Shown: positions 63,520-63,700, numbered from the stretch's first letter. The stretch is 64,000 bases of DNA from Escherichia phage WPEC4 (PV682947.1); one strand, 5' to 3'. Notes: generated by a model from the letters alone, not told the origin. Numbers and translations: made by a program.

Positions 63520-63700
63520 TATCATCATTCCGATACATTGCACACTATGCACATAATAGAATAAAAGTCAATAATTTTGGGGGCGAAATGTTACCGCCAC
63601 AGGCGGGAATGTTGAGCACTAAGAGAAGAGCAAATATCACGGGGGCGAATACTATCGCGTAGCGATATGTTGAGCACCTTCTCTTAAACGTAAATAAAAT
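63520..63700. repeat. Cluster of direct repeats (GGGGGCGAA...ATGTTGAGCAC twice) and embedded palindromes
   Basis: Units at about 63589-63630 and 63640-63680; palindromes CCGCCACAGGCGG and ATCGCGTAGCGAT; flanking inverted repeat AAGAGAAG/CTTCTCTT. Confidence 0.55.

Follow-up and report, generated by a model that had tools for sequence, protein, structure and literature searches.

To our knowledge, the question of how phages with short exact terminal repeats choose their two cuts and come to copy the repeat has stood open since the studies of T7 in the 1980s and 1990s. The T7 hairpin was reportedly first described by Chung, Nardone and Hinkle in 1990. In phage lambda, cos consists of cosQ, cosN and cosB, with repeated R sites for the small terminase subunit. 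HUH nucleases, at rolling-circle origins and the ends of IS200/IS605 elements, use sites in which a conserved cleavage sequence follows a few bases 3' of a short hairpin whose stem varies in sequence. Phages of the phiEco32/SU10 type have a 193 bp direct terminal repeat (DTR) with small repeated motifs close to the ends, and the model for their processing is T7-like (PMC4281155). Closer to the phage considered here, Korf et al. reported a terminal repeat of 328 bp for phage Schickermooser (PMC6563267), and the 342-bp DTR of BME3, a Justusliebigvirus and thus of a sister genus, was determined with PhageTerm (PMC12210895). Our literature search found such reports of the terminal repeat and no description of the cassettes considered here. 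As far as the searchable literature shows, the arrangement described below is new: conserved arms around a hairpin of free sequence, arrays of one to three exchangeable cassettes, and a hairpin-less paralogue at the other edge of the repeat. From the position and variation of these units, we consider that they are probably cis-acting modules of the concatemer cut site that makes the left genome end, at the left edge of the DTR.

The window analysed here, 64,000 nucleotides in length, is the right-hand 64 kb of the genome and corresponds to bases 1-64000 of the WPEC1 record, reverse-complemented. Its last 1.3 kb are 100% identical to Escherichia phages WPEC1, WPEC2 and WPEC6, and share 90-96% identity with about 60 members of Phapecoctavirus, a genus of 150-160 kb myoviruses in the subfamily Stephanstirmvirinae. 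Some records that are at least 95% identical in this region are labelled as Campylobacter, Acinetobacter, Klebsiella or Pseudomonas phages. The units lie within a non-coding, AT-rich gap of about 1.6 kb that is flanked by small genes running in one direction; the neighboring genes all lie on the + strand, and early-looking small genes start about 600 bp to the right of the units. In curated relatives the gap around the units carries no annotation. Short ORFs over the units, including automated 'hypothetical proteins', cannot be real; relatives carry insertions of 58 and 80-81 bases here. At the far end of the window (274-2199) is a cluster of 10-11 tRNA genes typical of the group (Met, Arg, Ser, Asn, Thr, Gly, Gln, Pro, Ile and Met, with an extra one found by Rfam only at 971-1055). 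ARAGORN placed tRNAs in that interval only, with no tRNA or tmRNA at the units.

A first-pass annotation had described two units, each enclosing a palindrome, and both were recovered on the + strand, at 63579-63619 and 63641-63677. They have the same architecture, a 5' arm GGGGGCGAA and a 3' arm ATGTTGAGCAC, with differing hairpins of 5-6 bp between the arms. In unit 1 (cassette type A) the 5' arm is at 63579-63587, the hairpin CCGCC-ACA-GGCGG at 63594-63606 and the 3' arm at 63609-63619; in this phage it is an internal copy, away from the DTR edge. In unit 2 (type B, the terminal unit) the 5' arm is at 63641-63649, the hairpin TATCGC-GTA-GCGATA, or (T)ATCGC-GTA-GCGAT(A), at 63653-63667 and the 3' arm at 63667-63677. 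The composite pattern GGGGGCGAA-N(10-35)-GTTGAGCAC matched twice in the 64-kb window and never in 100 dinucleotide shuffles, and no additional copy was found across the remaining 63 kb of the window. Its significance resides in the combination of arms, the single arms being unremarkable: with at most one mismatch, ATGTTGAGCAC gave 3 matches against 1.4 expected and GGGGGCGAA gave 6 against 4.6, neither of them significant. The bare 9-mer GTTRAGCAC occurs twice more in the window (25535 and 38312), both times in coding sequence. Since it is non-specific alone, the larger module must supply the specificity; TTTKGGGGGC is likewise non-specific as a bare motif.

The inverted repeat said to bracket unit 2 was also present, as TAAGAGAAG (63620-63628) and CTTCTCTTA (63678-63686). 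The first of these opens the inter-unit leader TAAGAGAAGAGCAAATATCAC (63620-63640, + strand), whose first 9 bases are the inverse complement of CTTCTCTTA. The pyrimidine-rich CTTCTCTTA (+ strand) in turn opens the DTR, standing just within it, and a similar TTCTTA follows the right-hand cut. The inverted repeat is thus accounted for: one half belongs to the unit 2 leader, and the other, opposite it, to the beginning of the terminal repeat. A third element had been claimed upstream of the units. The G-run element GGGGGCAATGGGAGG does exist on the + strand at 63501-63515, but it lies just outside the cluster to which it had been assigned and has only the G-run in common with the units; it resembles the 5' arm in part, and a Fur-box-like sequence comes after it. 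It is not an essential component, as the phAPEC8 group is without it. ESCO25 and DE16 are without the stretch between the GGGGGC of GGGGGCAATGGGAGG and the GGGGGC of unit 1, a loss consistent with recombination between the two G-runs.

The main evidence for a role in end formation is the position of the terminal repeat. In window orientation, the first 328 bases of the WPEC1 record, which opens AGCACCTTCTC, match window 63673-64000 at 328 of 328 positions. This right-end copy of the DTR (+ strand) is 328 bp long, or 329 bp counting the following A, a 1-base ambiguity in the exact right-hand cut. In the WPEC1 record its left boundary, ATGTTG^AGCAC on the + strand (the caret marking the inferred cut, 63672/63673), falls inside the 3' arm of unit 2, between G63672 and A63673. 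Schickermooser also has identical sequence at both genome ends. Its record opens AGCAAGTTCTC, or AGCAAGTTCTCTTAAACG (AGCAAG...), inside a unit 3' arm (...GGAATGTTG^AGCAAG...), and closes ...TTCGCGTTA (...GCGTTA), the left copy running on as AGCACTTCTTACG. Nine records from at least five groups (WPEC1, WPEC2, WPEC6, BI-EHEC, 3A1_SA_NWU, 10C3_SA_NWU, 118_SA_NWU, Mt1B1_P17 and Schickermooser) begin or end at one identical base, these ends being read from deposited records of which some were possibly oriented by homology to Schickermooser and not mapped independently. That unit 2 rather than unit 1 would be cut in the present two-unit phage is taken from the WPEC record alone. Many deposited Phapecoctavirus genomes were opened arbitrarily (ESCO5, REC, tuntematon and nepoznato, for example), and only a minority are written from true ends. 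The spacing from one GTTR^AGCA to the other is 329 in 17 of 17 Phapecoctavirus sequences extracted, and 331-332 in the phiWec179/phiWec188/PsgM04F group, where the DTR is only about 71% identical.

Terminase, replication-initiator and repressor binding had all been offered as roles for the repeated modules. With the DTR edge inside the arm of unit 2, position strongly favors terminase or packaging, and nothing supporting an origin or repressor role was seen in our analysis of the units and flanking genes. It is highly improbable, in our judgment, that the units bind a replication initiator or early-gene regulator and adjoin the DTR by coincidence. Such binding sites would not be out of place in a non-coding, AT-rich region that is rich in other repeats and palindromes, has Fur-box-like sites enriched nearby and is followed by early-looking small genes. 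However, near-identical phages carry anything from 1 to 3 copies and the palindromes are dissimilar, which is not what iterons or operators show, and no initiator or repressor gene is adjacent. A comparison with iteron-type origins gave 1-3 copies, divergent cores and no initiator-like gene adjoining the site. In addition, a cut that falls within the conserved arm, does so again at the other edge and recurs in another genus is unlikely to be there by chance.

The right edge of the DTR was found to have the same core without a hairpin, GGCCCGAAAATTCGCGTTA^AGCAC. In the window this right-boundary site is ACGGCCCGAAAATTCGCGTT(A^AGCAC) on the + strand at 63981-64000, with AGCAC just past the window end. 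The left edge reads ATGTTG^AGCACCTTCTCTTAAACGTA and the right edge GCGTTA^AGCACTTCTTACGTA. When six left units were aligned with three right boundaries, the GG of the G-run, the C before the hairpin and GTT-AGCA were invariant. The right edge resembles a unit missing its loop and 3' half-stem, as can be seen by setting unit B, CGAATACTATCGC(GTAGCGATAT)GTTG^AGCAC, against CGAAAATTCGC(-)GTTA^AGCAC. The left edge of BME3 is TATTTGTTG^AGCC (TGTTG^AGCC) and its right edge AAAATCGCGTTA^AGCAC (CGTTA^AGCAC); four direct copies of TATTTGTTG stand ahead of the left cut, and there is no hairpin there. BME3 is the most independent support for the motif as the real end-forming site. In the BME3 record itself (PP239276, 145800-147371) the repeat region occurs twice in the last 1.2 kb, with N bases in the terminal copy, which looks like an assembly or finishing artifact and not the simple layout described. 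A possible hairpin at the right edge, GAATT...AATTC, with apparent compensatory changes in the phiWec group, was rejected, as it is lost in BME3 and its fold has a z-score of -0.1 against shuffles.

We then compared the cassettes across relatives. Twenty relatives have 1-3 units to the left of the DTR, always in the order A-B-C. Type A stands by itself in Schickermooser, ETEC-TG and ESCO25, and type B in phAPEC8, PNJ1809-36 and SKA64; A+B is found in the window phage, tuntematon, TSP7_1, UP17 and SF1-1, A+C in P3322, ECO340P1, ECML-183-2, anhysbys, dw-ec and DE16, B+C in 536P1 and A+B+C in nepoznato. The type C stem is GGATTGCC-AAC-GGCGATCC, with one T-G wobble. In every array the last unit abuts the DTR, whichever its type (unit A does so in the three phages where it is the sole unit), so that each of the three types seems able to serve as the terminal unit. 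Every internal unit in multi-unit relatives is followed by TAAGARAAGAG, which is part of the AT-rich leader of the next unit. The phiWec/PsgM04F group and metagenomic relatives have one unit each, and stems in this single-unit set include CGC-GTA-GCG and CCGCC-TAT-GGCGG. The PsgM04F unit has a stem of only 2-3 bp, and this near-absence suggests that the hairpin may not be strictly required. A scan of IMG/VR with GGGGGCGAA-N-GTTGAGCA gave 80 chance matches and no relative and was uninformative. A tighter pattern across the DTR edge gave one IMG/VR relative, three metagenome relatives and two chance matches, with no cassette types in that IMG/VR and metagenome scan beyond those of the GenBank phages.

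The simplest account of cassette gain and loss would be recombination between the repeated arms. Another explanation would be that nothing but the 3' arm adjacent to the DTR is of importance, and that slipped or unequal recombination at a recombinogenic genome end has left the hairpins and the extra unit as neutral by-products. One-unit phages are evidently viable, and the stretch immediately upstream is a mosaic in which relatives differ by large replacements and insertions, both of which would fit such an explanation. We nevertheless regard it as quite improbable, given that three unrelated stems are all perfectly paired around a triloop with an invariant C-G closing pair, and that the 5' arm is kept in the right-edge paralogue and in relatives with an approximately 71% identical DTR.

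The pairing of the hairpin is conserved and its sequence is not. In a 13-column alignment of seven distinct cores, 97% of the cells are paired, compensatory changes are seen at four of the five pairs, and the closing C-G pair never varies. None of 500 shuffles reached this level of pairing and no slid register came near it, in an alignment that was registered by hand on the palindromes and is biased towards pairing. For A, B and phiWec188, shuffling of the inner segment of the single unit yielded a stem of equal or greater length in about 1% of trials. The z-scores for DNA folds of single units were modest, from +0.1 to -2.7. Folded as RNA, the 161-nt region gave -42.2 kcal/mol on the + strand (z -3.5) and -37.4 kcal/mol on the - strand (z -3.4), and the wobble positions slightly favor the + strand. 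The loop of unit B is found both ways among isolates, as GTA or, in nepoznato, TSP7_1 and UP17, as TAC, an inversion of the palindrome. The loop GGT (63319-63321) of a hairpin at 63310-63330 similarly becomes ACC in BME3, as the unit 2 loop at 63659-63661 flips. Both palindromes are, judging from these changes, inverted in place. The suggestion that the palindromes themselves are protein-binding sites could not be upheld, as the stems differ wholly between units and between phages and yet stay self-complementary, while it is the arms that are conserved. Since a base-reading protein could not recognize all of these stems, shape (hairpin or cruciform) is the economical reading for the hairpin, the arms being sequence-specific.

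Taken together, we propose that a terminus-generation module would begin with an AT-rich leader and continue with the G-rich 5' arm GGGGGCG(T)AA, a short GC-rich hairpin that varies in sequence and a 3' arm ATGTTG^AGCAC that holds the cut. In concatemers, a single copy of the repeat would lie between genomes. We infer that an end-forming enzyme, presumably terminase with its small subunit, may read the arms by sequence and the hairpin by shape only, either as an extruded cruciform or as a single-strand fold, for which the + strand folds slightly better; the pyrimidine-rich CTTCTCTTA after the arm is probably also recognized. The module adjoining CTTCTCTTAAACGTA would be the one cut, by a nick or a double-strand break between 63672 and 63673, and the hairpin-less paralogue 329 bp to the right would be cut for the other end, duplication of the repeat proceeding as it does in other phages of the short-repeat type. 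Modules further upstream, unit 1 among them, would be left uncut; they are likely paralogous copies that recombination between the repeated arms has created and removed, and may be extra binding sites, as the four TATTTGTTG copies of BME3 suggest. The right edge would be a paralogous site without a hairpin, and this asymmetry may tell the left cut from the right.

A more specific idea, which we hold only tentatively, is that the two DTR edges are paralogues differing only by the hairpin, that any GC-rich triloop stem would be recognized there by its shape, and that the hairpin acts either as a switch between 'start here' and 'stop here' or as a repeat-duplicating fold-back. If so, the arrays of 1-3 cassettes and the flipped loops would be footprints of hairpins being unfolded and copied in each round of maturation.

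Related to this is the alternative that the hairpins are not terminase recognition sites at all, and are instead intermediates of repeat duplication or signals for the end of packaging. In the former version the hairpin would be a T7-like hairpin end, a fold-back beside the DTR copying the repeat for both daughter ends; in the latter the motor would be slowed about 330 bp before the final cut, in the manner of lambda cosQ. In T7 infection, a hairpin that includes the terminal repeat was reported (summarized in PMC4281155), which counts in favor of this alternative, as does the imperfect inverted repeat about 190 bp to the left of the T7 DTR. At the present locus the hairpin lies 4-8 nt from the cut and at the left edge only, the right edge being hairpin-less, and the GTA and TAC loops of unit B resemble the flip and flop forms of unfolded, copied hairpins. 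However, simple template switching can also flip a loop, the stems are very short (5-8 bp), and BME3 and PsgM04F are without a good hairpin. Moreover, the top-strand 3' end at a GTTG^A nick would fold onto the G-run and not onto the DTR, so that, as far as can be inferred from the sequence, it could not by itself prime copying of the repeat. We therefore consider this alternative, in either version, unlikely.

A role of the units at the level of RNA was also considered, in which the + strand transcript would carry stem-loops for processing, stability, termination or antitermination, or short RNAs would start from the G-run. Every neighboring gene is on the + strand, the G-T wobbles in unit C and the AATGTT/AATGTT extension of unit A pair only on that strand, and the more stable of the two RNA folds given above is that of the + strand. 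In addition, a weak sigma-70-like match (9/12) ends at 63575, just ahead of unit 1. However, this promoter-like spacing is not kept ahead of units B and C, and our promoter scan found no convincing or conserved geometry at the units beyond that match. The upstream operon is closed 860 nt earlier by a strong terminator-like hairpin at 62701-62719. The units have no terminator-like U tract. A scan for intrinsic terminators was positive only at 62701 and 63310, the unit hairpins being followed by GAATGTTGAGC or ATGTTGAGC with no T run, and the units were thus rejected as intrinsic terminators. Rfam 15 had no family at 63500-63700, either at gathering thresholds over the window or up to an E-value of 10 over 62600-64000; only the tRNAs at 274-2199 passed the thresholds. 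An RNA role would also leave unexplained why the genome end falls inside the 3' arm and why the same core recurs at the other DTR edge, and we find it very improbable. The hairpin at 62701-62719, AGGGCGC-TTAAT-GCGCCCT followed by TTCTTTTT, ends the last gene cluster before the non-coding region and is annotated as a terminator in Schickermooser and phAPEC8.

Several other features of the non-coding end region were recorded. From 62860 to 63235 is a skewed stretch of 375 nt (A 46%, G 10%) with repeats of the CAACAA/ACAAAC type and no plausible ORF. A conserved multi-hairpin element at 63254-63414, about 165 nt to the left of the units, contains the hairpin CGCTATG/CATAGCG and a 15-bp long-range stem, GCTAATAATAAGCCA/TGGCTTATTATTAGC, that encloses ATAACCATC-GGT-GATGGTTAT and GCTTGCAAT-AA-TTGCAAGC. 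It has no Rfam match. Nine sequences drawn from Phapecoctavirus, the phiWec group and BME3 show compensatory changes at seven of its pairs, and it is a candidate for a structured element of RNA or DNA. The segment 63415-63578 is mosaic, being replaced by unrelated sequence (GCACGTAGCAACATGAGCGAATAGCGACAGGTTGCATAGTGTGCACATA...) in the phAPEC8, SKA64, 536P1 and anhysbys groups, and in SF1-1 it carries an extra insertion with a hairpin of its own, CCGACCG-GAGGG-CGGTCGG.

Sequences that agree with the E. coli Fur-box consensus GATAATGATAATCATTATC at 14-16 of its 19 positions cluster in the terminal non-coding region: 11 of the 19 such matches in the 64-kb window lie in 62720-64000, against 0.17 expected from shuffles. 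Such sites are at 62931-62955, 63441-63459, 63511-63529, 63744-63762 and 63923-63947, two of them inside the DTR, and the BME3 repeat has a near-perfect one, AAATGATAATCATTATCAG. Host Fur, or a phage protein with a similar taste, could act here on early promoters or the packaging region; our literature search found no report of Fur boxes in lytic phages. The DTR also contains a direct repeat, TTGTCGCTACGTTGGCATGA (63882-63901) and TTGTCGCTGCGTGGACCTGA (63962-63981), 80% identical at a distance of 80 bp; a Fur-box-like site lies about 20-35 nt upstream of each copy. The Fur-box cluster or the element at 63254-63414 could be part of the same packaging or early-control region.

If our reading of the units as end-forming modules is wrong, they are merely one more repeat in a non-coding end region. 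If it is right, the group offers natural swap experiments, with three unrelated hairpins in the same arms, 1-3 copies and a hairpin-less paralogue, so that small defined mutants should make it simple to take the signal apart. Members of Phapecoctavirus are widely isolated as candidates for phage therapy against E. coli and Klebsiella, and knowledge of the true ends and of the cis packaging site would help in finishing genomes, many records being cut arbitrarily, as well as in engineering these phages and in judging transduction risk.

Finally, we compared the locus with known classes of element. Some could be set aside directly. For a CRISPR-like mini-array, the cores differ (CCGCCACAGGCGG and ATCGCGTAGCGAT) and only 21 nt lie between the units, whereas spacers of about 28 nt or more are needed. 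A MITE or REP element would have terminal inverted repeats or target duplications, and neither was found; for an attP site, there is no integrase among the flanking genes, in the window or in related records. The G-runs are too far apart for a G-quadruplex. A headful pac site does not agree with the identical ends and constant repeat length of the records, in what is a record-level comparison. A cos site of the lambda type is ruled out by the 328-bp duplex repeat at both ends, lambda having 12-nt cohesive ends and no terminal redundancy. The likeness to lambda cos is that of a multi-part cis site with repeats beside the cleavage position that are thought to position terminase, although the R sites of lambda are conserved in sequence and the palindromes here are not. 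In the phiEco32/SU10 type, simple direct repeats lie inside the repeat region, whereas here hairpin cassettes lie outside it. The HUH sites bear a structural resemblance to the locus, with a short hairpin next to a conserved cleavage sequence, but the product here is a double-stranded genome end. The locus differs from T7 in that the hairpin is 4-8 nt from the cut and not about 190 bp away, in that it is held between conserved arms in 1-3 interchangeable cassettes, and in that one core, GTTR^AGCA, stands at both DTR edges. It has no sequence similarity to T7, and it belongs to a myovirus of 150-160 kb with no phage RNA polymerase promoter noticed nearby. The identical duplex at both ends, the fixed and reproducible ends and the element overlapping the cut nevertheless all agree with a short DTR of the T7 type. 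What the locus has in common with T7 and T3 is a short exact DTR (328 bp here, 160 bp in T7), fixed ends that are defined by sequence, and a palindrome that flanks the right-hand DTR copy on its genome side.
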